Assembly (NCBI GenBank): GCA_977017645.1 | Contig: OZ360243.1 | Location: forward strand, 18,042,001-18,106,000 | DNA: 64,000 bases | Direction: 5' to 3' | Origin: Torpedo marmorata | Taxonomy: Eukaryota | Shown: positions 736-63,937 of the stretch, one piece after another | Layout of the letters: each line of letters opens with the position of its first letter | How positions within the stretch are numbered: the stretch's first letter is position 1 | The notes under the pieces: generated by a model | Seen by the model: only the letters and a program-made list of their open reading frames with translations | What the model was told of the DNA's origin: nothing | Database searches by the model: none | Translations under genes and position numbers: made by a program

Positions 736-866
736 TTTTTTCTGAGGGTTGGGGAGGAGAGTGGGGCTTTTTTCTGAGCGTTGGGGAGGAGAGTGGGGCT
801 TTTTTCTGAGGTTTGGGGAGGAGAGTGGGGCTTTTTTTCTGAGGGTTGGGGAGGAGAGTGGGGCTT
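736..866. repeat. Minisatellite, ~4 copies of ~32-nt unit TTTTTCTGAGGGTTGGGGAGGAGAGTGGGGC
   Basis: Direct tandem repeats visible between the PLE fragment and the Rex1 3' end. Confidence 0.9.
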
Positions 867-3810
867 TAAGACAGTGTCTTATTCAAGAATCTGATGGCAG
901 CGGAGAAGAAGCAGTCCTTGTGCAGCTGAGTGTTCGTTTTCAAGCTCCTGTACCTTTTCCCCGATGGTAGCAGAGTGAAGAAGGCATGGCCTGGGTGGTG
1001 GTGGTCCTTGAGGATAGAGGTTGCTCTTTTCAGACACCTGTGGATGTCCTTGATGGAGTGAAGTCTGGTGGCTGTGATGTCGCAGGCCGAGTTAACAACC
1101 CTCTGGAGTTTTTTCTGGTCTTGAGCGTTGGTACCTCCATACCAGACAGTGATGCAACCAGACAGAATGCTCTCCACGGTACACCTGTAGAAGTTTACGA
1201 GAGTCTTCGGTGACATACCGAATCTCCTCAAACACCTCAAAGTATAGCTGCTGGCGAGCCTTCTTCGTGATTACATCGACCTGGAGGCTCCAGGACAGAC
1301 CCTCGGAGATGTTGACACCCAGGAATTTGAGGTTCTTGACCCTCTCCACTACTGAGCCCTCAATGAGGACTAGGTCGTGTTCCCCTGACTTCCTCCTGAA
1401 GTCCACAATCATCTCCTTGGTTTTGCTAACGTTGAGCGCAAGGTTGTTGGCGTGACACCACTCAACGAGCTGATCTATCTCCCTCCTGTACACTTCCTCA
1501 TTGCCATTTGTGATTCTGCCAACAACTGTGGTGTCATCGGCAAATTTGTAGAGAGCATTGGAATTGTGCCTGGCCACACAGTCTTGGGTGTATAATGAGT
1601 AGAGCAGTGGGCTAAGCACGTATCCTTGGGGTGCGCCTGTGTTGATAATTAGTGAGGAGGAGACGTTGTTTCAAATTCGTACTGACTGTGGTCTTCTGAT
1701 GAGGAAGTCAAGGATCCAGTTGCAGAGTGGGGTGCAGAGGCCTTGAGTTTGTAGCTTCTTGTCTAGTACTGAGGGAATAATGGTATTGAAGGCCGAGCTG
1801 TAGTCGATGAAGAGCAGCCGAATGTATGAGTTGCTGTTTTTGAGGTGATCCAGAGCTGAGTGGAGAGCCAGCTATATTGCGTCTGCTGTGGAGCGATTGT
1901 GACGATAGGCGAATTGCAGTGGGTCCAGACCTTTGCCTAGATATGTGTTAATTCTGGCCATGACCAGCCTCAAAGCATTTCATCACAGTTGGTGTTAGTG
2001 CTACTGGGCGGTAGTCGTTGAGGCAGCTCACAGCAGGTGGGAACCTCTGACTAGCAATGAGAGGTTGAAAATGTCCATGAACACTCCAGCTGGTTGGTTG
2101 GCGCAGATTTTCAGTACCATATCAGGTACGCCGTCAGGGCCTGACGCCTTGCGAGCGTTCACCCTCTTGAATGATGTTCTGACGTCGTCCTCAGAGACAG
2201 ATATCACAGGCCTCAGCCTTTTCAGGGATTCTATTAGGCACTGTTGGGTTCTCCTTCTCAAAGCGGGCATAGAAGGTGTTCAGCTCATCGGGTAATGAAG
2301 CATCACAACCATCCATGGTGTTCGCCCTCGCTTTGTAGGCTGTAATGGCCTGTACTCCCTGCCATAGCTGGCATGTATCTGTTTCTGTCTCTAGCTTCCT
2401 CCGGAATTGCCACTTTGCTTCAGAGATGGCCTTCCGCAGGTCGTACCTGGACTTCTTGTAGAGATCTAGATACTTGGCCTTAAACGCCCTTGATCTCACC
2501 CTCAGCAGGTTGCGAATCCTCTGATTCATCCAAGGCTTCTGGTTGGGGAATACCCGGTATGTGTGTGTGGGCACACACTTGTCCACGCAGGTCTTGATGA
2601 AGTTGGTGACACCTGTTGCATATTCATTCAAGTCTATGGATGAGTTCTTGAATATGGTCCAGTCCACCGATTCAAAGCGGTCCTGCAGACGCTCCTCCGC
2701 CTCCCTCGACCATACTTTCGCCGTCTTCACTACTGGTGCTGTGGTCCTCAGTCTCTGCTTGTACGCCGGGAGTAGAAGTACAGCCAGGTGATCAGACTTG
2801 CCGAAGTGCGGTCGTATGGCTAGGTAGGCATTCTTCATGGTGGTGTAGCAGTGGTCGAGTGTGTTTGCTCCCCTGGTCTCGCATGTGATGTGTTGGTGGT
2901 AGTTTGTCAGAGACTTCTTCAGGTTGGCCTGATTTAAGTCCCCTACAATGATCGGGAAGGCATCAGGATATGCCGTCTCATGGTTGTTAATTACAGTACT
3001 CAGTCCCAGCCTGATGTTAGCCTGGGGTGGAATGTACACTGCGACCAGGTTGATGGCGGTGAACTCCCTCGGCAGGTAGGATGGGTGGCACTTGATCGCC
3101 AGATGTTCCAGGTCAGAGGAGCAGGACTGGGACATAACCGTCACGTTTGTGCACCATGATGAATTAATGATGACACTAATGCTGCCTCCCCTGGTCTTTC
3201 CTGACGCCGCTGTCCGGTCAGCGCGGTGGAGGGTGTAGCCCACGGGCTGTAGTGCCGTGTCCGGAATGTCCGCATTTAACCATGTTTCTGTAAAGCACAT
3301 CACACAGCACTCTCTGATGTTGAAGTCTGGCTTGGAGTTCATCGAGTTTGTTCTCCAAGGATTGTACGTTGGCCAGGAGGATGGCAGGGAGCGGAAGCCC
3401 CAGGGCCCGGCATCTCAGCTTAACCTGTAGCCCCCATCTGCATCCACGTGGTCCTGTCTTCTTTAAATGGCCCGTGGGTCCGCTGCTAGTAATTCCCACG
3501 GTGTTTAAATGGTTTGTGCGATGTCCCTTTAAATCTCCCGCGATTTTTAAATGGCCCGATCGCTGACTGTGTAAAACTCCCGCGGTGTTGAACTTGTCTG
3601 AGCGCCGGCTGTTTAAAGGTCCCGCGGTCCGACAGTGACTGCCAATTCTTTTAATTCCGAGGTCTGCTTGCGATCTTAGGATATCCTTATTCACGGGTAA
3701 GTTTGATTTTATGGTTCTGGGGTTGAATTTTAATAGTTCTGAACGGGAATATTTGATAATTCCCATCAGAGCTGCACACAGAGTCGCCACTGAAAGGCGC
3801 CATCTTGTAA
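866..3810 (-). mobile_element. Near full-length, degenerate Rex1/Babar-clade LINE (APE endonuclease + RT)
   Basis: ORF pieces: APE (LANVQSLENK, CFTETWL, IIVGDLNQ, TLDHCY, SDHLAV); RT (GPDGVP, LSPLLYSLYT, YKFADDTTVVGRI, KFLGV); C-term HHPGHAFFTLLPSGKRYRS; 5' end carries CAAGATGGCGCC (3796-3807, minus); several frameshifts. Confidence 0.9.
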
Positions 3811-4774: not shown

Positions 4775-6160
4775 TAATAGACAATAGGAGCTGGAGTAGG
4801 CCCTTCGGCCCGTCGAGCCAGCACCGCCATTTTACAGATCATGGCTGATCACTACTATCAGTACCCCTTACCAGCCTTATCCCCATAACCCTTAACTCCT
4901 CTGCCCACTAGAGTCTTATCTAACTCTCTTTTGAACATAATCAGCGAATCTGCCTCTACCACCCTCTGTGGCAGAGCATTCCACAGATTCACACTTCTCT
5001 GGGTAAAAAATTTTTTCCTCATCTCCGTCCTAAAGGGCCTTCCCTGTATTCTTAAACTATGCCTTCTAGTCCTCGTCTCTCCCATCATTGGGAACAAGTA
5101 ATCTGACTTCACCCTGTCTATCCCCTTGATAATTTTGTATACCTCAATCATGTCCCCCCTCATCCTTCTAAACTCCATCGGATACAAGTCCAGTTTTTCT
5201 AACCTTTCAGCATAAGTCAACCCTGCCATCCCTGGAACTAACCTTGTAAATCTGCGCTGCACACCCTCTAGCTAGTATGTCCTTCCTCAAATTTGGAGAC
5301 CAGAACTGGACGCAATACTCCAGGTGGGGTCTCACCAGGGCCCTGTACAACTGCAGAAGGGCGTCTCTGCTCCTATACTCCAATCCCCTCTTTATGAAAG
5401 CCAACATGCCATTTGCCTTCTTCACAGCTTTCTGAACCTGCATGTTAGCCTTCAGTGACCGGTGAACAAGTACACCCAGATCCATTTGCACTTCCCCACT
5501 CCCTAGCTTGTCTCCATTTAAATAATACTCAGCTTTCCTATTTCTGCCCCCAAAATGGATAACCTCACATTTGCTCACATTGAACTTCATCTTCCATTCT
5601 TCAGCCCACTCCCCCAACCTGTCCAAGTCCCTCTGCATTTTCCTGACATCCTCTTCACACTTTACACCGCCACCCAGTTTAGTGTCATCTGCAAATTTGC
5701 TCATGTTATTAATAATCCCATCATCCAAATCATTTACATAAATGACAAACAACTGAGGACCCAACACCGATCCCTGCGGCACTCCACTCGTCACATCCTG
5801 CCATCCTGAAAAAGACCCGCTTACCCCAACCCTTTGTTTCCTATTTCTTAACCAACTTCCTATCCATGTCAGCACCTTACCTTCAATACCATGCTCCCTG
5901 ATCTTGCCCACTAGTCTCCCGTGCGGTACCTTATCAAAGGCCTTCTGGAAGTCCAAATACACCACATCCACTGGCTCTCCCAAGTCCACCCTTTTTGTCA
6001 CATCTTCGAAAAATTCCAGAAGGTTAGTCAAGCATGACTTACCCTTAAGGAATCCATGCTGACTAGCCCTTATACTATTATTTCTGCCTAAGTGTTCCGC
6101 TATTACTCCTTTTATGATAGATTCCAATATCTTCCCCACCACTGACGTCAGGCTGACCGG
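4775..6160 (-). mobile_element. 5'-truncated CR1 LINE, RT C-terminal half and 3' UTR
   Basis: ORFs 5207-6142 and 4858-5262: SQHGF, YLDFQKAFDKVPH, SGVPQGSVLGP, KFADDTKLGG, RPHLEYCVQFWSP, RRMRGDMIEVYKI; one frameshift near 5265. Confidence 0.95.
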
Positions 6161-8050: not shown

Positions 8051-9200
8051 TTTTCACTCGAATACATGTCTTGGATGCACTATCAGATCTACTGTCTCCT
8101 ATCTTATCAGATAATTCCCTTTTATGGAGGAAAAAGGTCTGGTTGTTCAATGATGGGTATATCTTATTTCTTTTATCTTTCCAGCTGATCCTTTTGTGCA
8201 CCTTCTCCAGCGCTTCTATTCTTTCTACAATGCAACCAAGGTTCTATGCATATTCGGCATAATTGATGTTTCAATTGCCTTAGATGCAAATCATATTTCT
8301 AATTACCTTGTATCATTGTAACTTGGCTGTTCTTAATTAAATTGGATTTCCTTGTTTTTTCCTTGTACAGTATCTGCCTGTTGATTTTAATATTTTAGAG
8401 CAGTGCTTAAATTTTTTTTGTTAGAGATTTCTGCAGCTTGCATCGCTTCCTAATTGACTGGTCTGTATTTCTTGTGTGGTGCTTTGACCTATTAAAACTC
8501 CACAGAAATTGAGAGTTAGTGAAAAACTTCAAATTTAACTTTAAATTTGACTTTTAAGTTTTACAACCGCAAATCTTAAAAGAATTTGGCTACGTGTTTT
8601 TATTCACTTTCTGGGCAAAGGTTGATTGGCAGCGTGAACCATTATTGTAAAATACAATCTGCTGGAGAAACTTGAGGGTCAATCAGTATCGATTGGAGAA
8701 AAAGAATTGTCAACGTTTCAGGCCACATCAAGACTCCATGGCCAGTTGGAATGGAATGAATGTTTTTGCCAATTGAGCAGGCTCTTTTGCTCTGGTTGGT
8801 GTTGATGCTGCTCTCTTTCAGGCAAGTGGAAAATGCTTCATCACACTCCTGACCTGCCTCACAATAACATGTTTGCTGCAGTTGACCATACAGTATAGTT
8901 TTAAGAAAGAGTTCCAGCTGCAAAGATTGACAATCCTTTTTTCTCCATGGATGCTTCCTGACCTGCTGAGGCCCTCCAGCCTCTCATTATTTGCTCAAAA
9001 CTCCAACATCTGCAGTTCTAGGTTTCTCAACATTTCTGATGTAATAGTTATTTAATCCTGTGATGCAGAGTGGAAGAGGGGATAAAACAATAAATTATGT
9101 AAGGGTCATAAAAGGATTTAAAGATTAGTGATGCAGGATAGGCATATGGGAATGGAATAAATGTAGAAGTGAACTGGGGTCTGGGAAATTGTTGGAAATA

Positions 9201-9398
9201 CCGTAGATTTCGGCGTATAAGTCGACTCGCGGATAAGTCGACCCCCTTTTTCAGCCTCATTTTAATGGTTTTATTGTATATCTGGCGTATAAGTCGACCC
9301 CCAATTTTCAGGCTGTCCGGGCCTCCCAGCAACAACCCAAAATTTGTTACAACACCCCAATCGCTAAGTAACAAAGCTGTAAATTAAGCAAGTAAGTT

Positions 9399-9430
<32 letters not shown>

Positions 9431-10034
9431 CTTTGCTTCTGGCCGGGAAGATGCCAAACGGAGCTGGGTCCAAGTCTTCAGCTTCGGCTGTAGCCATAGT
9501 CGGCGACTCCATTCTCCACATCGGGTGCGGTGCTGTCCGCATCGAAGAAGTTGCCTCGCTGCCCAAGTGTGCTTGGTGCAGGAACCACGGCTACGTGTCG
9601 GCTCCCGGGCAGGTGCGGCGACCTTGTTCTCCCGGGCAGGTGCAGACTCGGACTACGTGGCAGGAGCGGGAACCTCCCCCTACCGTCCAGGAGCATCGGC
9701 CTTGACTTACCGGGCAGGAGTGGCGACCTCAGGCTCCTGGGTAAGAACGGGGACCTCGGGCTCTACAATTATAGAATGTCTGGGTGGTTTATGGCAGTGC
9801 CCGGCGGTGGGGAGGTGCTTCCAGGGTCGACCTATATGCCAAATCGGTTTTTCATGGGTCGACTTATATGCCGAATCGGGTTTTCAAGGGTCGATTTATA
9901 CGCCAAATCGGCGTGGAGTAGTTTTTGAGCTGATTTTAAGGTCTCAAAAGTATATCCAGCGTATAAGTCGACCCCCGTTTTTTTGAGAGATTTTTGAAGG
10001 TTGCAAGACTCAACTTATACGCCAAAATATATGG
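9201..10034 (+). mobile_element. Tc2/pogo-like (Tc1-mariner superfamily) non-autonomous TIR element, copy 1, carrying a DMRT-like insert
   Basis: TIR CCGTAGATTTCGGCGTATAAGTCGAC ... GACTCAACTTATACGCCAAAATATATGG, TA on both sides, repeated internal GTCGACTTATACGCC motifs; homologous to three other copies in the window. Confidence 0.9.
9451..9600 (+). pseudogene. dmrt1: Captured fragment of DMRT1 exon 1 (start codon to first half of DM domain) inside the MITE
   Basis: ATG CCA AAC = MPN start; an alternate frame gives SASKKLPR; a 1-nt shift then gives LPKCAWCRNHGYVS (DM consensus PKCARCRNHG; R>W fits a CGG>TGG CpG transition). Confidence 0.8.
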
Positions 10035-10972
10035 TACTTCTATGTCAGGCAGTATTTATGAAGGGAAGAAAAATCTTAACATACAAAATTAGTGAACTTT
10101 CATCAGTACATCAGGAAAGCTGCTTCCAAAGGTTAATTGTGATTCCTCAAATTCCATTGGAACATGATTGGAATAGAGAATGGAAAAGCATCTGGAAGTT
10201 TAAGTTTGTGCTAATGGACTTAGCAAAAGTGTTCAGCAAAACAACTTAATGTAATGGCATCCAGATGAAATGGCATTTAAACATTACTGCAACAGAATTT
10301 TTTCTCCCTTGTTTACCCCCTCCCCCACTTTCTGCAGTTATTTTGACAGTGCTGAATTTATTTTAAAAAATGAATTGGTCAGTAATTTTAAGTTTTCTGC
10401 CTTTCACATGTGTTGAGATAAGGTTTTTAATTTATCATGAGAATTGGCCAAATAAGATGAAGTACCCCCAAGTTGGAATTTTATTATCAATTGTGAAGAG
10501 GACTTGACATTTTCAATTACAGAAAAAGCAATGAGACAAATTGAATCACTTCCATAAACTATCTAAATGCAAAGCCAGAAGCATGAAATAAATAAAAACT
10601 GAACATGCAGGAAATGTGTAGCATGCAAGCAGTATCGATTGAAAGAGAAACTTAGCTTTGGGTCAGGGAGCATTCAAAACAGTAAAAGTTAAATTTCCAG
10701 GGACTAATTGTACTTTTTAGAAGTTTAATTCATGGAGCTTGCATAACAACCTGTTTATATGGACCAGTTTATATGCCCCCACCCCAAACACCAGTACCTC
10801 CCCTAGATATTCTGAAGAAGTGGTAGTCTGCTTCAAATGGCAACCCTACAGTGAATCACTTTCAGAAAGGGGAGTAACATCGATCTCTGAATCTGATCAA
10901 ATAGCCTCTCCACTTGGTACTTGAATATTGACTCCACCCCACTCATTTGCAATTTCAAGAACGTTTGTCACT

Positions 10973-11723
10973 AGGCCTTTTCACACCGCCGAGTGCATGT
11001 GGGCAGACCGTCCGATTTCCTGGGAACTTACCTGTAAAATATCCAGTCTGGAAAAGGCCCAACCTGGCATGGCAGGTCAAAATCGACCGGGCTCCGAGAC
11101 CTACTCGGGGGTACTCTCGGAGCCCGGCCGAGTTAACCCGGCAGCCGTCCTCTGGCAGTCTGAAAAAGCAAATGGCTTACCCAGTAATATTATTGATGTC
11201 AGCACCTGCGTGCTTGCGTCACATAAAACCCATAAAAATAGAAATAAGAGATACAACAATATAAATGTTACTTTAATGATGGCAAAGGGACCTAAGCCAC
11301 AATATTAAAAGTATTTTAAAATTGAAAAACTTATAGCTTACGAGATCAAAAAACAACGGGCCCGCTCAGGGCAGTGGCGGCTCAATGCGGGATCAATGGC
11401 CGTCTTTGTTACCCATAATCCCCCACCCAGCTGGAACCGCTCTGCGTTTCCCTGGCGCTGGCAAAGTGGTTCCACCTGCGTGGGGGATTATGGATAACGA
11501 AGACGGCCATTGATCTCGCATTGAGCCGCCGCCCTGAGCGGGCCCGTTGTTTTTTGAAACATTTCCTGTGAGTGCGTAACGCGTCACTCGCATCATCATC
11601 GTTGGAGGCGGGACCGCCCTTAAAACGCCTGGTAGGTTAGGCTGCAGTCTGAAAGAACCCGGAGGTCCAGGCTTCCCTGGAACTTTTCCTGGGACACAAG
11701 ACGTCGGTGGTGTGAAAAGGCCT
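10973..11723. mobile_element. Non-autonomous TIR element (Harbinger-like termini) with large internal hairpin
   Basis: Terminal inverted repeats AGGCCTTTTCACACC(G/A)CCGA ... TCGGTGGTGTGAAAAGGCCT; TSD ambiguous (TA, or ACT/AAT). Confidence 0.75.
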
Positions 11724-11974
11724 AATGATTCATAAGCTTGATTTCCATACTCCAGATGCCGTGGAGTGGAACTCATTTTCTAATAGCTTATGACTGATTT
11801 GCCATTAGTGGCATTGGGGCAAGTTTTCCAGAAATCAGTGTTGGCTCTTCAGCTTGGCTCAATGCAGGCATATTGAGAGAGGTATTCCAGAGAAGGGGGA
11901 AATATAGTATTATATTTTGAATTATAGATGTGATTACCTTGCACTCTATTAAAAATACTGCTTTCTCTTCAAAG

Positions 11975-12179
11975 TATCAGCAGCACCTTAATGGATATGG
12001 ACAGTACTATCTCCAGTGGACGCTCTACTCCAGCGCTGATAAATGGTCACGGAAGCACTACTTCAGGAAAGAGTATCACTTACAACTGCTGTTGGGACCA
12101 ATGCCAGACCAGTTTCTGCTCCAGTCCAGATTTGGCAGACCACATCCGATCAATTCATGTGGATGGGCAACGTGGAGGG
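11975..12179 (+). CDS. aebp2: AEBP2 coding exon (human exon 2 equivalent): [21 protein letters not shown]...[34 protein letters not shown]2H2 finger 1
   Basis: Acceptor TTTCTCTTCAAAG, donor GGG|GTCTGT; peptide closely matches vertebrate AEBP2; ends phase 0, in frame with next exon. Confidence 0.95.
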
Positions 12180-13934
12180 GTCTGTTTTTCTTTTTATTCC
12201 TATTCATTTGGATAGCTAAGTGCTGAGATAAAATGTAATTATCAGTCCATTAATAAGGCTCAGTGGAGTCAAAGCTTGAAATTTAATTTAGCAGTCAGTA
12301 ACTTACCAACTTTGTTCTTTTGTACAATTTAATTCCTGTTTAGATGTAGTTTTAGAAGATCTAGGGTTACTGATTATGGGTTTCTCATCTTATTTTTGAT
12401 TTGATATTCTAAATTTGCTTTCAATGAAATCTGCCAAATTCATTTTTGGGGTTGCAGGTGTTAAATGATTAAGAAATACGTTGATTTGGTTGTCTCTCAT
12501 GGCAAAACATGTGTTGTAAAGCCACGTAGTCCTGTGTGAAGGACCAAGTGAGTAGCATGTTCTGTGGATGCTGTGTCATTTACTGGGAAGAATACAAGAT
12601 AATTACCGTAGTCAAACTGAAAGATTGAATTTCAAACAATCTTTCGTGTGCTCCTTCATATAACCTCTGCCAAACTTTGTGCATCATTTTCTTCCTGCTA
12701 AAGTCTCTATTGTGGATATGTCATTGATGGCCCATTTAGCTACTGGATGCCTAAGTATTGTTTGATTTATTTTTGTATCCATTCTCCTTGAAGGGGAGTT
12801 TCAAATTTTTATCCTCCCTTTTCTTCAGGCTTTCTAAATGCAGTTACCTGCACGGAAAGTGTGTTTTTAAACAGAGTAACAATCCTGGACTAATTTCTAT
12901 CTAGTTGCTTGTCTGATTGCAATCTTTCAGTTGTAACTGCCCATGCAAACAAGAATAGCTACTAATGTTCTATGAAGATTCAGTAACTTGAATCAATATG
13001 TTCTACCAAATTGTATTTAAAATTTAAGTTGAAATTTATCCCTATCCTGAAATTCCTCTTGATATGCATGCACTGAGCGAAGTTGCTTGAGTTGTTGCAC
13101 AACCAGCCAAACATTGTGTTTGCCTTGCACTTCATGACTTTTGCCTTGTAGAAGCATTTGAAGAGTCAGATAGTGAGTCTTTCACCACGGGGCGCCTGGC
13201 CCTTTTTCTGTCTTAGTGATGGTATTTAAAGGTTACTTGGTTTCTGGATCTATGAGGCTGATGCAGCAAATGGCATTATAATTCATGTGGAAGAATGTTT
13301 GCATTTTAGCTACAAGCACTTCACATTGCTGGAGGTGAAGTGGAGATCTTAGCTGTGCTGCTGATTACTTATGACACGGTGTCTTGAATTATCTGACAAT
13401 TGTGTTCCAAATGCTTTCCCTCAAAAACTGGGGTTTAAATTGTTTTTGAATGTTTAACAAAAAGGCAAAATGGGAAATAGCATTTTCTAGTTAGATGGGC
13501 AAAGTTAAATTTATTTTTAGGATTGTCTTCAAAAATTTTCTGAAATTAAACCTTGAGGCGAATAGATGTGAAATTTCTGCTTATGGATTGTTTGATGTCA
13601 TTCACCTAAAATTAGCACAAGTAGTGCAAAAGGTATTTCAATTTTAAAAGCAGATTAGATCCAATGCTAATCAAATCTCTGCATTCAACATTGTGCTGGA
13701 AGGGAATCTCACTCAAAACTGGCAGTACCCCATAAATTGCTCACAACTTGTGTTTATGGATAGTGGTGTTATTTGGAGGATTTGAAAAGAATAAGCCAAT
13801 TCTCTTCTAATCAAGAATACACATTGGATACATTAAACTGTTTACTGTATCCTAATATAATTATCCTGAAATAAAATAAAATAATTTATAAAGACTTGTA
13901 TGCATTAACATTTTTAACTTCAGTTAAAAATTGT

Positions 13935-15852: not shown

Positions 15853-17048
15853 CCGTATATTTCGGCGTATAAGTCGACCGGCAGATAAGTCGACCCCCCT
15901 TTTTCAGCCTCATTTTAATGGTTTTATGGTATATCTGGCGTATAAGTCGACCCCCAAAAATCGTGATGCCTGAGATGTTGCGCATTGACCGGCGTATAGG
16001 TCGACCCCCAATTTTCAGGCTGTCTGGGCCTCCCAGCAACAACCCAAAATTTGTTACAACATCCCAATCGCCAAGTAACAAAGCTGTAAATTAAGCAAGT
16101 ACCGGTAAGTAAAAAAAAACAGTAAAATAAACCTTTGCTTCTGGCCGGGAAGATGCACGTGCGGCGACGTCTTTCTCCTGAGCAGTAGCGGGGAGCTCGT
16201 TCTCCTGAGCAGTAGTGGGGACTCATTCTCCCGAGCAGGAGCGGGGACGTCTTTCTCCCAAGCAGGAGCGGGGAGCTCGTTCTCCCGAGCAGGAGCGGGG
16301 AGCTCGTTCTCCCGAGCAGGAGCGGGGACTCGTTCTCCCGAGCAGGAGCGGGGACTCGTTCTCCCGAGCAGGAGCGGGGACTCGTTCTCCCGAGCAGGAG
16401 CGGGGAGCTCGTTCTCCCGAGCAGGAGCGGGGACGTCGTTCTCCCGGGCAGGCATGGGGACTCGTTCTCCCGGGCAGGAGCGGGGAGCTCGTTCTCCCGA
16501 GCAGGAGCGGGGACGTCTTTCTCCCAAGCAGGAGCGGGGAGCTCGTTCTCCAGAGCAGGAGCGGGGAGCTCGTTCTCCAGAGCAGGAGCGGGGACGTCGT
16601 TCTCCCGGGCAGGTGCGGGGAGCTCGTTCTCCCGGGCAGGAGCGGGGAGCTCGTTCTCCTGAGCAGGAGCGGGGAGCTCATTCTCCCGGGTAGGAGCGTG
16701 GACCTCGGGCTCTACAATTGTAGAATGTCTGGGTGGTTTATGGCGGCGCCCGGCGGTGGGGAGGTGTCGTAGAGAGACGGCGCCGGCGGTGGAGAGGTGT
16801 CGTAGAGAGGCGGCGCCGGCGGTGGAGAGGCGCTTCCAGGGTCGACCTATACGCTGAATCGTGTTTTCAGGGGTCGTATTATACGCCGAATCGTGTTTTC
16901 AGGGGTCGACTTATACGCCGAATCGGCGTGAACTCGATTTTGAGCTGATTTTAAGGTCTCAAAAGTATATCTGGCGTATAAGTCGACCCCCGTTTTTTGA
17001 GACATTTTTGAGGGTTTCAAGGGTCGACTTATACGCCGAAATATACGG
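15853..17048 (+). mobile_element. Tc2/pogo-like MITE, copy 2 (expanded minisatellite)
   Basis: Perfect TIR CCGTATATTTCGGCGTATAAGTCGAC / GTCGACTTATACGCCGAAATATACGG, TA TSD inside a (TA)n tract. Confidence 0.95.
16181..16700. repeat. GC-rich minisatellite, ~19 units of 26-28 nt (GCAGGAGCGGGGAGCTCGTTCTCCCGA)
   Basis: Head-to-tail repeats with no spacers; source of the repetitive ORFs (ENELPAPAR, RSPEQERGA). Confidence 0.95.
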
Positions 17049-25547: not shown

Positions 25548-28500
25548 GGAGCGGTCACGTGATGCAGCAGAGCTAGGAGGACGCGGGCCCCGGGGCTTCC
25601 CAGAAGAATCTAATTGAAAGCCATTAAAAACGCCCAGAATCAACTAAACTAGCTGAATAGCTAGAATATGAGCAAAAAACAAATAAACAAACAAGGTAAT
25701 TTAGTCACCAATCAAAATCTAGCTTCTACAGCAGAATCCATTTCAGCAACCGGCCGTCGGGAAAATGGCAAAATGGCGGCCGCAAAAGCCTCGAGGTCAA
25801 CGGAGGGATCCATCCCTGGAACGGGGCCAGCCCAAGAGCAGCTGCTGAAGGAGGGAGATTCACGTGTCCTCCTCCAGGAGATAAAGAGAGGTAATGAAGC
25901 CATTTCTAATAAGTTGGACTCCAAAACTGAAGAGATTAATCAGTCCATCTCCGGACTTAAAACTATGTTAGACCAGCTGAGTTTCCGCGTGGCTGATACG
26001 GAGGAACGCGTTGGGATGGCAGAGGATCGATTAACGGAGACGGACTCTTCCCTTAGTGTGTTAAGGAGAGAAAATGACTTTCTACTGGGGAAAATAGACC
26101 AGCTAGAGAACCACAGCCGATATAATAATATCCATATTGTTAACTTGAAAGAAGGCTGTGAGGGAAATAACCCCTTAGAATTCTTCACTGGCTGGATCCC
26201 AGACATTATGGGATGAGAACACATTAATGAACTGATAATAACTGAACGGGCCCATCGAGTTTTTGCGCCCAACCCATCTGCGGGCCAGTATCAGGACCGG
26301 GAAAATATTCTGCGTGTCGCCGCGTGGCAGTCGAGAGAGGACAAGGGCCCCATTACATACAACAATAGGCCAGTGCTATTTTTCCCCGACCTCAGTGCGT
26401 TAATGAAGCGCAGGAGGGAGTTCGATCAAATCAAGAAGGAACTCCAATCTAAGGACATTCCATTTGCCTTACTTCACCCTGCAACATTGAGGGTCACACT
26501 CCCTAATGGAGGGAGGAAATTCTTCAAAACGCCCGGGGAAGCAACGACATTCTTGCGTGATTGGCCAGGAGGAGAATAAAATAGCGAGCAAGAGCAGATG
26601 GAGGAAAACTGGATAGGCAGTCGTGGTCATCACGAGCTGCCGTGGATATGTGCCTTAAACTGTAGTCACTTTTTCCACAATGGATAGACGAGTTCCAATT
26701 TAAACAGACTAGTTTCTTTTGTAGCTGATTTTTACAGTAATTCTGAGTTGGGTGTTTTTAAATCTATTGTTGTATTCAAAATTAAATAATCTTGCATAAT
26801 AGTTCATGTTTTTTTAGATAGGAGCCCTGGGCAGGGCAAAATGTTTAAGAATTAGTTAGATATGCTGTGTCTAAACGAGTGCAAGATGCACATCCCAGTC
26901 TGATGGGGAAGGTAATGCTGAATATTCAGAAGTCGACATTGGGAGGGGGGAGGGGGGGGCTTTTTACTTTTATTTTTATTAACCTTGTCAGTGCCTTATC
27001 CGATCTTTTACTATTTTGTCACAAGAGACATTTTTTGCTTGTATAGAGATTTTACAGAGAGGTCATAACACTTCGGTGTGTATGTATGTATGTATTGCCT
27101 TTATACAAGAAACCCACCTTACTACACAGGAACATAAGAAACTAACGAGAGAATGGGTAGGACATGTAATATCGTCATCTTTTAATTCCAAAGCCAGGGG
27201 GGTAGCCATCCTGAAAAACAAAAAACACGGCAGTAACAATTGTAGAAACTATCATTGACCCATCAGGCCGATATGTATTAGTTAATTGTCGGCTTTATTC
27301 AGAGTCCTGGACACTTTTAAACCTATATGCACCTAACTATGATGATGAATCCTTTATTCAAGATATCTTCCTTAAGGTTTCAGGGGGACAACAAAATATA
27401 CTTGTAGGGGGCGACTTCAGTTTCTGTTTGGATCCTGTCCTGGACAAGTCAACGCAGACAGTATCCAATAAAAGTGGCCAAAACTACTTTGGCTTTCCTG
27501 AAAGATTTAAATTTGACAGATGTGTGGAGGCAAACGCACCCTCGAACCAGGGACTACTCCTTTTATTCTCCACCCCCCCCACCCCATAATTCCCACACTA
27601 GGATTGACCTCTTTTTGTTATCAACACACTTAATTCATAAAACATTAGAGTCAGAATATTTATCTAGAACCCTGTCGGATCATTCGTCTTTGACCCTCTC
27701 TATTTTGATGCCAGAAAAACCAACTAACTCATACAGATGGCATCTGAATCCTACCCTACTTCAAAAACCAGAATTTTGTAAGTTTATTAGAGACCAGATA
27801 AAGTTATTTTGTGAGATAAACTGTCCCTCTGCTTCCAATAGTTTTATTTTATGGGACACGTTAAAAGCCAACCTAAGGGGACAGAGAATCTCATATACAA
27901 AAGGTATTAAGAAGAAATACATGGCAGACATCGAAGGACTGGAAACAGAAATTCTGAAATTGGAAAAGGAGTTCCAACAGTCTGGCTCTAAGGAAGTATA
28001 TAAAGTGCGTGTAAACAAAAAAACTCAAGTATAATACACTACACACTTATAAAATTGAAAAAAAACATTCTAAGGACTAAACAAAGATATTATGAACTGG
28101 GAGAGAAAGCACATAGTCTTGTCCTGGCAATTGAAAGCAGAGGAAAGTTCAAGAACAATTAATTCAATTCAGACTGAAATGGGCTCAGTCTCATATAATC
28201 CAACTGAAATCAATGACACATTTAAACAGTTCTGTACAAATTTATATAAATCAGAATTGCCAGAAGAACTGACTAAGATTGATGACTTCTTATCCACTGT
28301 TGAACTGCCCAAACTTGACCAAGAAGATCAAGCAAATGTGGACCTCCCCTTTACCCCAAAAGAAATTGAAAAAGCCTTAGGCTCCCTGCAGTCCAATAAA
28401 TCACCAGGGGAGGACAGTTTCCCGCCAGAATTTTATAGAGAAATTTAAGGATTTACTTATACCCCTCATCATGGATGTAATTAATTTAGCGTCTAAAACC

Positions 28501-30859
28501 CAAACTCTCCCTGAACCATTTTCTACTGCCATAATTACTGTGATTCATTAAAAAAAACCACAGACCCATTAAAATGCTCTATTTCGGCCCATTTCATTAT
28601 ATGGTTAAACTCAGATTATAAATTGATTTCTAAGACCCTTGCTAACAGGCTTGGCCAATACTTGCCGAAATTAATAAATCCAGAACAGAGTGGCTTTATT
28701 TTGAAACGCTGCTCAGCCAACAACCTATGTAGGCTCTTTAATATTATCCACTATGCAAAGTCTAAGGCTGAACTGAGTGTCACTGTGGCTCTGGATGCTG
28801 AGAAAGCCTTTGACAGGCTGGAATGGCCATATTTAGAGTCTTGGCCAAGCTCGGGTTTGGGCAGCTGTTTATTAACTGGGTTAAAACTCTTTATCATAGA
28901 CCCAAAGCCAGGGTCGCCACTAATAGACAGATCTTGGCAGCGTTCCCTTTTGAGCAGGTCGAGTCGACAGGGTTGTCCCTTATCTCCTGGACTTTTTGTC
29001 TTGGCTATTGAGCCCTGAGCAGAGGCAATTAGACAAGACTCGGATATAAAGAGTTTTATAGTGGTTCATACAAATCACAAAATTAATCTTACGGCAGATG
29101 ATGTAATCCTGTACTTAACAGATCTGGTTAATTCCCTCACTAAATTACAGACTTTATTAAAAACTTACGGCGAAGTTTCAGGATACAAGGTAAACTTGGG
29201 AAAAAAGTGAAATTATCCCACTAACAAATTTTGATTACACTGAGTACCAGCGAACAAGCCCATTCAAATGGCCCTCGGGTGTCATTAAATACCTTGGAAT
29301 AATGGTAGATAATGATCTTCAGAATTTATAAAAACGTAACTACCTCCCGTTACTTATAAAATTGAAGAAGATTTGAGTAGGTGGGTGAACTTGCCCATCA
29401 CTAATTGGCAGAGTCAACTGTGTGAAGATGAATATATTGCCGAGATTGCAGTATTTTTCCAGTCCTTGCCCATTCCACTACCCCAAACCTTTTTCAAAAC
29501 CCTTAATAAGCATGTTGGGCAATTTATATGGAACTGCAAAGTACCCAGAGTATCCATGGAAAAGTTAACATGGGATTATAGATTAGGAGGCATCCGGTTG
29601 CCCAGTTTCAAAAAATATTTGGCGGCCAAAATGAGATTTATTTCTTCAGGTTTTGAGTGATGATAGCCCCTCCTGGGTACAAATTGGATTGTGTTACAGA
29701 ATCAAACCAGCAACGACAGAAGACGCAATGCAAAAGGGGTAAAAATTGAAATTATTATTTATTAAACACAAGTAAACATATAATTTCACAACAATTAACC
29801 CCACTATAAACGTCTATAAACTCTATTCTTATCTAAAAGGTGTATGTGTGTGTGTGTAAAGCCCAGACCATTACAGTCTGTGCCCAACCCTTATGAAAAA
29901 AATGGAAAAACTTTCCCCAAAAACCCCAGGTCAGTCATAAAACAACAAGTCAGTCAAAAAAAAAGATAAACAGTCCACAAGATTCACTCTCTAAGTTCAG
30001 GCTTCACTTCAGCTCTGGGTCTGGTAGAAGTACTTCTGAATGAACGTTGGAGAGAGACAAATGACTGTTATGCTTACAAATACTTGTTTTCTTCTCTGAT
30101 GACGTTCCCTTCTTGTAGGTTCATAAGGATTGCAAGTTCCAGATCAGTATACCACTGATTTAGGCGTACGCTTGAATCTCACAGCTAGTCTCGCTGATCT
30201 CACGCCTGTTCTCCACAGAAGTTGCTTTTCTCTCAGAATTTCTCTCTGAGACAGGAGGCCATGTGCTATTCTGTCAGTCTTTCTCTGACTTTTGCACACA
30301 AAACTGGATCTGGCTGTGTTCTGTAGCCTTGCAACTCACAACTGTCTGCTTTGCAGAGATCTGCCCCTGCTTTTTGAAGAAGTGAAACAAATGTATCTTC
30401 TCCAGCCTGTCTCTGTCTCTCTCTGTCTGGGTACACCAGAAGTGTGCAACAATGTATCTTGTCTGGGTACACCAAGTAGCTGGGGAAGTTAACCCTTTCA
30501 GTACCTGTCCCCAGTGTATACTCCAAAAGAATTCATCCTTCCTGCTAACCGTCCGCAGTCCAAATGGTCAGTCATGGTCCATAACAATTGCAATCCCAAA
30601 AAGAGAAGGTGTACAATGATTTTACCTATAAATGGAATTCCAGAATTATAGCCAACAGGACAGACAACCCCATTTTAAAACACTTGGTTAGAATATGGCG
30701 TGAGATCTGTGGAGGCTCTGGACGGAAAAGGGGATTGTCAGTGAAAACACCATTAAGACAAAATGAACTTATACCCATGACGTTGAACAATAAAATTCTG
30801 GAAGCCTGGTATCATAATGGGATACAACATCTGGAAAATTGCCATGAAAAAGGACATTT
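25548..30859 (+). mobile_element. L1-clade LINE, 5'-intact but degenerate (ORF1 25668-26579; ORF2 ~27080-30859), interrupted by a solo LTR and ending in the assembly gap
   Basis: ORF1 coiled-coil with LENHSRYNNIHIVNLKEG and FFPDLS; ORF2 APE (AFIQETHL, RGVAIL, RIDLFL, SDHS) and RT (KSPGED, LDAEKAFDRLEW, RQGCPLSP); many frameshifts. Confidence 0.92.
29692..30586 (-). mobile_element. Solo LTR (Gypsy/ERV-like) inserted in L1 ORF2
   Basis: TGTTAC...TAACA termini, 4-bp TSD ATTG on both sides; L1 frame resumes across it (PSWVQIG-L-QSQKEK); homologous to 61288-62230 in reverse orientation. Confidence 0.9.
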
Positions 30860-32220: not shown

Positions 32221-32837
32221 CCGTATATTTCGGCGTATAAGTCGACCCTTGAAACCCTCAAAAATGTCTCAAAAAACAGGGGTCGACTTATACGCCGGAT
32301 ATACTTTTGAGACCTTAAAATCAGCTCAAAATCGAGTTCACGCCGATTCGGCCTGTAAGTCGACCCATGAAAAACCGATTCGGCGTATAGGTCGACGCTG
32401 GAAGCACCTCCCCACCGCCGGCGCCGCCGCTCCCCGACACCTCCCCACTGCCGGGCGCCGCCATAAACCACCCAGACATTCTACAATTGTAGAGCCCGAG
32501 GTCCCCGCTCCTGCCCGGGAGATCGAGCTCCCCGCTCCTGCCCGGGAGATCGAGCTCCCCGCTCCTGCCCGGGAGAACGAGCTCCCCGCTCCTGCCCGGG
32601 AGAAAGACGTCGCCGCACCTGCATCTTCCCGGCCAGAACCAAAGGTTTTTTTTACTGTTTTTTTTTTTTTACTTACCGGTACTTGCTTAACAAATTTTGG
32701 GTTGTTGCTGGGAGGCCCGGACAGCCTGAAAATTGGGGGTCGACTTATACGCCGGATATACCATAAAACCATTAAAATGAGGCTGAAAAAGGGGGGTCGA
32801 CTTATCCGCGAGTCGACTTATACGCCGAAATATACGG
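32221..32837 (-). mobile_element. Tc2/pogo-like MITE, copy 3 (reverse orientation)
   Basis: Perfect TIRs CCGTATATTTCGGCGTATAAGTCGAC, TA TSD, ~4 minisatellite units. Confidence 0.95.
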
Positions 32838-63283: not shown

Positions 63284-63450
63284 CCGTATATTTCGGCGTA
63301 TAAGTCGACTCGCGGATAAGTCGACCCCCCCTTTTTCAGCCTCATTTTAATGGTTTTATGGTATATCCGGCGTATAAGTCGACCCCCAATTTTCAGGCTG
63401 TCCGGGCCTCCCAGCAACAACCCAAAATTTGTTAAGCAAGTACCCCGGTA

Positions 63451-63482
<32 letters not shown>

Positions 63483-63937
63483 CAGTAAAAAATACCTTTG
63501 GTTCTGGCCGGGAAGATGCAGGTGCGGCGACGTCTTTCTCCCGAGCAGGAGCGGGGAGCTCGTTCTCCCGAGCAGGAGCGGGGAGCTCGTTCTCCCGAGC
63601 AGGAGCGGGGAGCTCCTTCTCCCAGGCAGGAGCGGGGAGCTCGATCTCCCTGGTAGGAGCGAGGACCTCGGGCTCTACAATTGTAGAATGTCTGGGTGGT
63701 TTATGGCGGCGCCCGGCGGTGGGGAGGTGTCGGGGAGCGGCGGAGGGGAGGTGCTTCCAGCGTCGACCTAAACGCCGAATTGGTTTTTCATGGGTCGACT
63801 TATACGCCGAATCGGCGTGAACTCGATTTTGAGCTGATTTTAGGGTCTCAAAAGTATATCCGGCGTATAAGTCGACCCCCGTTTTTTGAGACATTTTTGA
63901 GGGTTTCAAGGGTCGACTTATTCGCCGAAATATACGG
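63284..63937 (+). mobile_element. Tc2/pogo-like MITE, copy 4
   Basis: TIR CCGTATATTTCGGCGTATAAGTCGAC; flanks TA / TG; ~5 minisatellite units. Confidence 0.95.

Follow-up and report, generated by a model that had tools for sequence, protein, structure and literature searches.

A non-autonomous transposon of the pogo/Passer type in the first intron of AEBP2 of Torpedo marmorata contains the 5′ part of the DMRT1 gene between its terminal inverted repeats (TIRs), and relatives with the same interior occupy thousands of sites in this genome. Likely, the elements were mobilised in trans, the DMRT1 DNA travelled in them as a neutral passenger, and it was later relayed to transposons of other families.

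Results

Structure and genomic context of the window element

The window is the whole stretch of 64,000 nucleotides that was analysed; its features are listed in Table 1. As the first-pass annotation had proposed, the element is a TA-flanked, TIR-bounded MITE: it is short, lacks a transposase gene, belongs to a high-copy family and has the ends of an autonomous partner. The two TIRs of the window copy are mismatched (left CCGTAGATTTC..., right ...ATATATGG). Positions 9301-9309 are a leftover of the original 5′ capture boundary, next to which an internal deletion is found, and the poly-A tract is enlarged. No match to the second GC-rich segment was found in the DMRT1 locus (L043) or in the autonomous copy. 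At 9775-9814 of the window this segment corresponds to DNA that forms tandem repeats in some copies, and it is possibly a further captured piece.

The proposed insertion into an AEBP2 intron was confirmed. Exon 2 of the host gene follows on the same strand as the element, and what we take to be exon 1, located with a 9-residue motif, ends in a CpG-rich stretch near C57:18013312, about 29 kb upstream of the window, which places the insertion in intron 1. The supposition of a single captured copy had to be given up, as the element is one of thousands and three other members in the window also hold DMRT1 5′ UTR and minisatellite DNA. With regard to AEBP2, four family copies were counted in the 64-kb window and none in the 80 kb upstream, at an estimated genome-wide density of about one per 350 kb. 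The window also contains another element at 10968-11728 with 34-nt inverted-repeat arms and an internal 70-nt hairpin at 11376-11530, and broken frames at 866-3414, 4858-6160 and 25665-30620 that are presumably fragments of LINE retrotransposons.

Table 1. Features of the window; positions count from its first nucleotide.
Feature	Position	Strand	Remarks
Non-autonomous pogo/Passer element	9201-10034		834 bp, without transposase; TA on both sides
TA target-site duplication, left	9199-9200		TA present
TA target-site duplication, right	10035-10036		TA present
Left TIR	9201-9226	+	CCGTAGATTTCGGCGTATAAGTCGAC; family form CCGTATATTTC...
Left subterminal arm, TAAGTCGACCCC repeats	9227-9300	+	common with autonomous Passer element, 93.6% over 110 bp
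Captured DMRT1 5′ upstream/UTR DNA	9301-9450	+	aligns to L043:1222-1350
Captured DMRT1 exon-1 coding piece	9451-9604	+	begins with ATG; DM half at 9559-9603
84-codon open frame, DMRT1 ATG into minisatellite	9451-9705	+	no functional DM domain
GC-rich 26-27-bp minisatellite from DMRT1 intron 1	9599-9763	+	L043:1701-2372 array
Arm junction (TACAAT) and second GC-rich segment	9764-9814	+	common to family members
Right subterminal arm, 32-bp repeats	9815-10008	+	common with autonomous element, 85% over 223 bp including TIR; repeat families D2-D4
Right TIR	10009-10034	-	...ATATATGG
AEBP2 exon 2 (host gene)	11973-12185	+	match to AEBP2 chains of solved structure, E 2e-35
Family member	15853-17048	+	DMRT1 5′ UTR to ATG-C and enlarged minisatellite; coding piece deleted
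Family member	32221-32837	-	part of DMRT1 5′ UTR to ATG-C and minisatellite
Family member	63284-63937	+	part of DMRT1 5′ UTR to ATG-C and minisatellite

Origin of the captured DNA

The genome was searched for DM domains; 150 of 3,770 candidates were scored, with 87 matches among those scored. The single DMRT1 gene of the genome is locus L043 (C2:246.43 Mb), whose best protein matches are elasmobranch DMRT1 sequences (Pristis, 94%) and whose exon 1 encodes MPNGAGSKSS...KKSPRLPKCARCRNHGYVS...MAAQ, followed by a GT donor. It lies upstream of exons that we take to be DMRT3-like and DMRT2-like, in the order DMRT1-DMRT3-DMRT2 on C2.

Window positions 9314-9604 were aligned by BLASTN to L043:1222-1549 with an E-value of 5e-71 (253 of 338 columns identical, 57 gap columns), a similarity that extends beyond the short DM string and is not due to chance. 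The match begins about 130 bp 5′ of the ATG, and about 140 bp of 5′ UTR are included in the captured DNA. Together with the ends of the autonomous element described below, this alignment upholds the earlier proposal that a Tc2/pogo-like element captured the DMRT1 5′ end; the captured span, first given as 9431-9612, is corrected to 9301/9314 to about 9763.

The cargo consists of the DMRT1 5′ UTR, a deleted exon 1 and a minisatellite that in the gene starts 60 bp inside intron 1, so that non-transposon DNA with an identifiable parent is enclosed by TIR arms, as in a Pack-TIR. Since intron DNA is part of the cargo, the donor was genomic DNA and not mRNA, and a retroposed origin is ruled out. When the joins were inspected by eye, a CC(G/C)CCAATTT-type overlap was seen at the 5′ boundary and a putative CGGCTC microhomology where exon 1 is fused to the minisatellite; at the latter join, what remained of the exon was lost along with the splice donor. 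Apart from the DMRT1 gene, the 3′ half of exon 1 has matches at only four places in the genome. The minisatellite was retained in 66 of 69 and in 10 of 10 sampled copies; 17 G-quadruplex-pattern matches lie on one strand of the array in the gene and none in the window copy.

The host DMRT1 N terminus (L043:1351-1640) has itself changed since the capture: in a comparison by eye with copies L092-L094, three amino-acid changes and a two-codon deletion stand against two silent changes within exon 1, numbers too small to test.

Reading frame of the coding piece

The peptide MPNGAGSKSS, the shifted-frame SASKKLPR and LPKCAWCRNHGYVS, all noted in the first-pass annotation, are present in the coding piece. 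The claim that the ATG frame runs through the DM half is correct: from the ATG at 9451-9453 the frame is open for 84 amino acids up to the TGA at 9703-9705. The frame gets to the DM half because a 44-bp deletion at 9520/9521 and a 1-bp deletion at 9558/9559 cancel each other, and the codons between them are read out of frame. The DM half itself (LPKCAWCRNHGYVSA, 9559-9603) contains three of eight zinc ligands (C, C and H, according to the ligand set that we assumed for scoring), an R to W exchange and no recognition helix. A Pfam scan of the 84-aa frame gave DM at an E-value of 0.039, which is below the cut-off and not significant, and a protein search with the out-of-frame ORF of another copy (L007) gave none at an E-value of 0.01 among 3,412 candidates with lengths of 55-175.

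The autonomous Passer partner

Passer transposons were reportedly described by Gao et al. in 2020 and by Wang et al. in 2023. In a search for the BrkDBD domain with 13,207 candidates, 150 matches were scored, and the majority of these lie in open frames of 456 codons. The family TIR was found upstream of 29 of 30 BrkDBD loci and the DMRT1 UTR at none of the 30, which rules out an autonomous element that uses the DMRT1 UTR. In one 2.36-kb copy with a 445-aa ORF (C1:4875850-4878208), the arms match those of the window element (93.6% and 85%) and PF09607 (BrkDBD) scored above the cut-off at C1:4876523, at the N terminus of the transposase. The second and third Asp are 35 residues apart, as counted by eye in the translation with catalytic motif positions that we assumed. 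A TA target duplication, TIRs under 30 bp, a transposase of 400-500 aa and an element length of 1.6-4 kb were also found. With its TA target, short TIR, BrkDBD and DD35D spacing, the predicted transposase partner fits Passer as defined in PMC7386202 (Gao et al. 2020) and PMC9976928 (Wang et al. 2023).

A transposase copy with older ends is present as well (L212). Among the 30 best loci of a DDE_1 search, none had family TIRs as its own ends and one contained an inserted copy. The many intact 456-codon frames suggest recent activity of this Passer family (L198, L199; L156-L185), which is a candidate active transposon in a cartilaginous fish. Judging from the ends that they have in common, the cargo elements were likely moved in trans by its transposase.

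Copy number and distribution

A 20-mer ending in ATG-C, representing the start-codon region, has 8,881 exact matches in the genome, and a 28-mer reaching into the coding sequence has 1,869; the DMRT1 gene is included once in each count, and the reversed controls gave 0. Exact family TIR ends number 24,896. The first 30 of them on C1 belong to 22 elements, of which 12 bear a transposase, 10 carry DMRT1 cargo and none is of another kind, i.e. all ten transposase-free Passer members in the sample hold DMRT1 DNA. Of these ten cargo elements found by TIR alone, five contain the exact 20-mer, which suggests a total of roughly 18,000 cargo copies, with a two- to threefold uncertainty. Of 40 sampled copies in which both TIRs are present, 38 are flanked by TA on either side, and the flanks differ between copies, as is the case for Pack-TIRs that were multiplied by transposition to distinct target sites. 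Copies L071 and L072 (G000:C1:20488628 and 20556123) are identical including their flanks, lie 67 kb apart and are likely a segmental duplication.

Part of the window stretch is contained in 20 sequencing runs from 12 studies, none of which is listed as RNA; X7 is possibly an RNA run. In four of these runs, from four organisms and four studies, 2,788, 105, 150 and 3,415 contigs fall on the stretch. Contigs listed for runs X2 and X9 bridge three joins, namely the one between arm and UTR, the one at the 44-bp deletion and the one to the minisatellite; those listed for runs X6 and X7 cover the parts, and their length does not suffice to span the joins by 31 letters. As the bridging contigs come from two other organisms, the family is common to other organisms and the window copy is no assembly chimera, a possibility raised earlier that is also excluded by the dispersed copies with different flanks. 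Runs X2 and X9 have low depth over the young TIR compared with arm and cargo, and more CpG changes. It is suggested that the two organisms (B and F) are without much of the young expansion, contig depth being a poor measure.

Order of deletions and possible time of capture

The deletions in the cargo are nested and thus give the order of its history. In copies L092-L094, which represent a first stage, the ends are of the older form, the UTR is retained from L043:1165 on, and exon 1 continues as far as a 62-bp deletion by which recognition helix and splice donor were removed; their identity to the gene is 89-92%. All eight zinc-ligand codons are kept in L093, and most or all of them in rare old copies. 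At the second stage (L095) the 44-bp deletion was added, which is common to 68 of 69 sampled copies. The 1-bp deletion, the CGGCTC join, the shortened UTR and the younger ends came later, and in most copies everything 3′ of ATG-C has been lost. Cargo copies occur with ends of both ages; together with the older-ended transposase copy L212, this makes it likely that the cargo swapped ends or co-evolved with them.

The copies keep six bases (Val-Gly) that are found in other rays and sharks and are absent from the host gene and Narcine, and they resemble the host gene and Narcine in having P/Q-S-A instead of S-P-A. If each change occurred once, the capture would date to the electric-ray stem; the six-base loss lies in a short repeat and could recur. 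The difference between copies and the group majority is 2.7-5.5%, in samples biased to low divergence. In a tree of cargo copies (79 rows; one locus without a row) bootstrap support was unsettled and only the young Passer group was separated (97/93). The order among the other carriers is not resolved by the tree and rests on indels and junctions.

Probable transfer of the cargo to other carriers

The carriers were classified in 69 copies with an exact 28-mer, taken in order along C1 (70 copies, one identical twin dropped). Passer elements accounted for 52 of them, hAT-like elements for 11 and Tigger-like elements for 5, and one was truncated. The 44-bp deletion is present in all 52 Passer, all 11 hAT-like and four of the five Tigger-like copies as well as in the truncated one; the fifth Tigger-like copy is truncated right at the deletion point. 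The names are provisional: Tigger was assigned from TIR likeness, and Charlie-like and Tip100-like are the subfamilies that we assume for the hAT-like carriers.

The hAT-like carrier of DMRT1 has short TIRs and an 8-bp duplication, exact in L070, L247, L268, L300, L303 and L313 and matching at seven of eight positions in L087 and L311. Its right end has 228 exact matches in the genome. Among 18 elements sampled from these (two already in hand were skipped), seven are cargo-free parents, five contain DMRT1 exon DNA, four the minisatellite only, next to a different left end (CAGTGGCGG...), and two are fragments. The Tigger-like carrier, with TA-CAGGTCGAGTACCCC ends, has 545 exact end matches, and 12 of 20 sampled elements (two skipped) carry DMRT1 DNA from L043:1298. 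Four elements (L302, L305, L309 and L312) combine the left end of the DMRTA carrier described below with the right end of the other hAT-like carrier and contain the DMRT1 minisatellite. These likely represent a fourth relay step, the elements' own right ends not being seen.

The hAT-like copies retain the Passer arm junction and the Tigger-like copies the second GC-rich segment of the Passer copies, so the cargo was likely taken from Passer copies. The DMRT1 cargo was thus likely relayed second-hand between transposon families, from pogo to hAT-like and Tigger-like carriers.

Capture of a second DMRT gene

The 30 best DM loci in the genome include 21 dispersed copies in which exon 1 of a DMRTA-type gene and the beginning of its intron 1 are found. 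The source gene is L034 (G000:C2:256478365, C2:256.48 Mb), which from its position we take to be DMRTA A1. In a protein search with the DMRTA exon the choice between A1 and A2 was unsettled and no named ray copy was listed. The copies are 87-93% identical to this gene and number at least 38 besides the gene (38 by 27-mer). Their carrier is hAT-like, with CAGTGGCGGATTAAC ends and a length of 1.5-2.1 kb (L035-L060, L216-L245); among 20 loci in which both ends are present, its 8-bp duplications are exact in 13 and match at seven of eight positions in five more. In 10 of the 21 copies, which are the best-scoring ones, all eight ligand positions were seen by eye in one frame. The native ATG is absent, and none of these ten has an in-frame upstream ATG. 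Further DMRT loci are a second three-gene DMRT cluster at C22:158.07-158.18 Mb (L031, L038, L055), a second DMRTA-type gene at C22:191980666 (L032) and an extra divergent DM exon at C2:256448128 (L057), 30 kb from the DMRTA gene.

Discussion

The probable course of events would begin with a single capture in an electric-ray ancestor, through a template switch in the course of gap or fork repair and guided by short homologies. Coding DNA would then have been lost stepwise by neutral erosion while the elements spread in trans by means of the Passer transposase and exchanged ends with newer autonomous subfamilies. Other carriers would have recaptured the cargo second-hand, aided by its high copy number and by the unstable G-rich minisatellite. 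Several observations speak against a mere passenger: all ten transposase-free Passer members and 12 of 20 Tigger-like elements bear the cargo, a second DMRT gene was captured separately, and, in raw figures, the cargo has undergone somewhat less CpG decay than the arms. The repeated success of the cargo exceeds the obvious needs of a passenger.

A less probable explanation, which we nevertheless take seriously, is that the DMRT1 5′ piece benefits its carriers, either through germline-open chromatin or transcription or by blunting small-RNA silencing, since silencing of the piece could also hit DMRT1 (epigenetic conflict), and that this benefit drove spread and relay. The sole cargo of the transposase-free Passer members, its presence in three and in part four carriers and the capture of a second DMRT gene point in this direction. 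So do, in the parts of these sources considered here, the higher copy numbers of bat Helitrons with 5′ gene ends (PMC4224331) and the epigenetic conflict model known in maize (10.1101/777037). In maize, however, capturing elements reportedly show no gain in copy number (10.1101/777037). Furthermore, the commonest forms lack the coding piece (8,881 versus 1,869 matches), and GC-box, CCAAT and E-box-like motifs, located by eye at L043:1073-1115, fall outside the captured DNA. CpG transitions amount to 7.2% in the cargo and to 10.4% and 9.0% in the arms, and non-CpG transitions to 1.5% and to 1.6% and 2.1%, respectively. The resulting ratio of 4.8-6.0 in the cargo lies within that of the arms (4.4-6.4), so the copies look methylated like ordinary repeats and resistance of the cargo to methylation is unsupported. 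The window element also contains no ACAWTGY core, a motif based in part on the medaka site in PMC2820524, and a spread of DMRT1 binding sites was rejected on this basis.

In its strongest form, which we consider rather unlikely, the DMRT1 5′ module would be a selfish cassette that aids any transposon holding it and was relayed between pogo and hAT, with DMRT1, a regulator of the testis, placed under small-RNA cross-fire from about 10^4 partial copies. If so, this would be a capture-driven epigenetic conflict in an animal at a sex-development gene, in which a second DMRT gene was likewise caught.

It is very improbable that one or more copies act as a truncated sex regulator like DM-W or DMY, or encode a dominant-negative DMRT1 peptide. 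The native ATG and 5′ UTR are retained, the open frame in the window comprises 84 codons, rare old copies have most or all zinc-ligand codons (all eight in L093), and in DM-W dmrt1 exons were fused to hAT-derived coding DNA (PMC9250109). The DM domain of the window copy, on the other hand, is cut after the third zinc ligand. Of the 69 copies, 49 keep the DM half, only seven read it in the ATG frame and none has the second half; no recognition helix was found in the four longest copies, and no copy examined retains the splice donor. In 45 selected young copies, 128 nonsynonymous changes were counted, where 119 would be expected on the basis of site classes; synonymous changes number 49. This count gives no purifying selection on the coding piece in the pooled young copies, related copies being treated as independent and common changes counted repeatedly; a single constrained copy would escape it. 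According to PMC12318234, no DMRT1 orthologues were detected on the X chromosomes of elasmobranchs. With neither a complete DM domain nor coding constraint, the window copy is, from its sequence, not a DM-W/DMY-like gene, contrary to what the first-pass annotation had raised.

That the carriers acquired DMRT1 from the gene in separate captures is hardly credible. The tree does not separate the hAT-like, Tigger-like and old Passer groups from each other or from the gene, and AGCAAG occurs near the 5′ junction in both the hAT parent and the gene. Yet the 44-bp deletion shared by 11 of 11 hAT-like and four of five Tigger-like copies contradicts independent captures unless it recurred, as do the Passer junction in the hAT-like and the Passer GC-rich segment in the Tigger-like copies. 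An assembly chimera or a chance peptide match, in favour of which stands the non-significant Pfam result for the window frame, is already refuted by the alignment to the gene, the thousands of dispersed copies with different flanks and the diagnostic joins bridged in two other organisms, and may be dismissed.

Comparison with known systems

No publication on a DMRT1-carrying transposon family was found, although repeat libraries, subscription papers and supplements beyond the scope of the search may hold one; 'dmrt' is absent from the main text of the shark-and-ray genome-size preprint. The element is a Pack-TIR, and the novelty lies in the scale, in the probable relay across superfamilies and in the capture of two DMRT genes. 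This one genome contains the intermediates, the probable source of transposase and, for two other carriers, the parental elements without cargo. Two questions thereby become testable: whether a transposon gains from captured host DNA, for which copies of one carrier with and without cargo can be compared, and whether the silencing of such copies acts back on the donor gene in the germline of an animal. In practical work on these rays, the copies will interfere with dmrt1 PCR, probes, read mapping and repeat masking.

The partner element resembles Passer of PMC7386202 and PMC9976928 in its TA target, TIRs under 30 bp, length of 2.36 kb, 445-aa transposase, BrkDBD and DD35D. It differs in that the main-text passages of these papers name no cartilaginous fish host and no gene-capturing derivative, which their supplements may list. 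Like the Pack-TIRs of the animal survey of Tan et al. 2021 (PMC8277862), the DMRT1 elements hold GC-rich host DNA with an identifiable parent between TIR arms, have possible microhomology at the joins and became multicopy by transposition. In the part of that survey considered, four multicopy cases were reported from 100 genomes, with examples of 3 and 5 copies. Here, in contrast, there are thousands of copies, about a thousand-fold more than in those examples and in a vertebrate, the cargo defines the non-autonomous form, and it was likely passed to other carriers. As described there, the survey method starts from consensus elements of libraries and may therefore miss such cases.

In bat Helitrons, a NUBPL fragment composed of promoter/5′ UTR, exon 1 and a portion of intron 1 was amplified to about a thousand copies (Thomas et al. 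2014, PMC4224331), so mass amplification of a 5′ gene end has a precedent in another class of transposons. HelibatN3 and other Helitrons that capture 5′ ends are alike in that 5′ gene ends amplify most; they are rolling-circle and not TIR elements, whereas here the piece of one gene reached at least 8,880 copies and likely crossed from pogo to hAT-like carriers. In the plant Pack-MULE and Helitron conflict treated in 10.1101/777037, captured fragments could make silencing RNAs that cross-react with the donor gene, which may also apply to DMRT1. The present case differs by the animal piRNA system and by a single gonadal-regulator donor that faces about 10^4 partial copies.

Xenopus DM-W (PMC9250109) and medaka dmrt1bY/Izanagi (PMC2820524) also join partial dmrt1 to DNA-transposon sequence. 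In both, the transposon entered a single DNA-binding dmrt1 duplicate. The DMRT1 element is the reverse, since here dmrt1 entered the transposon, the DNA-binding domain was lost and no constraint is apparent. Raw material for DM-W-like genes can be mass-produced in this way, most directly by the DMRTA family with its whole DM-domain exons.
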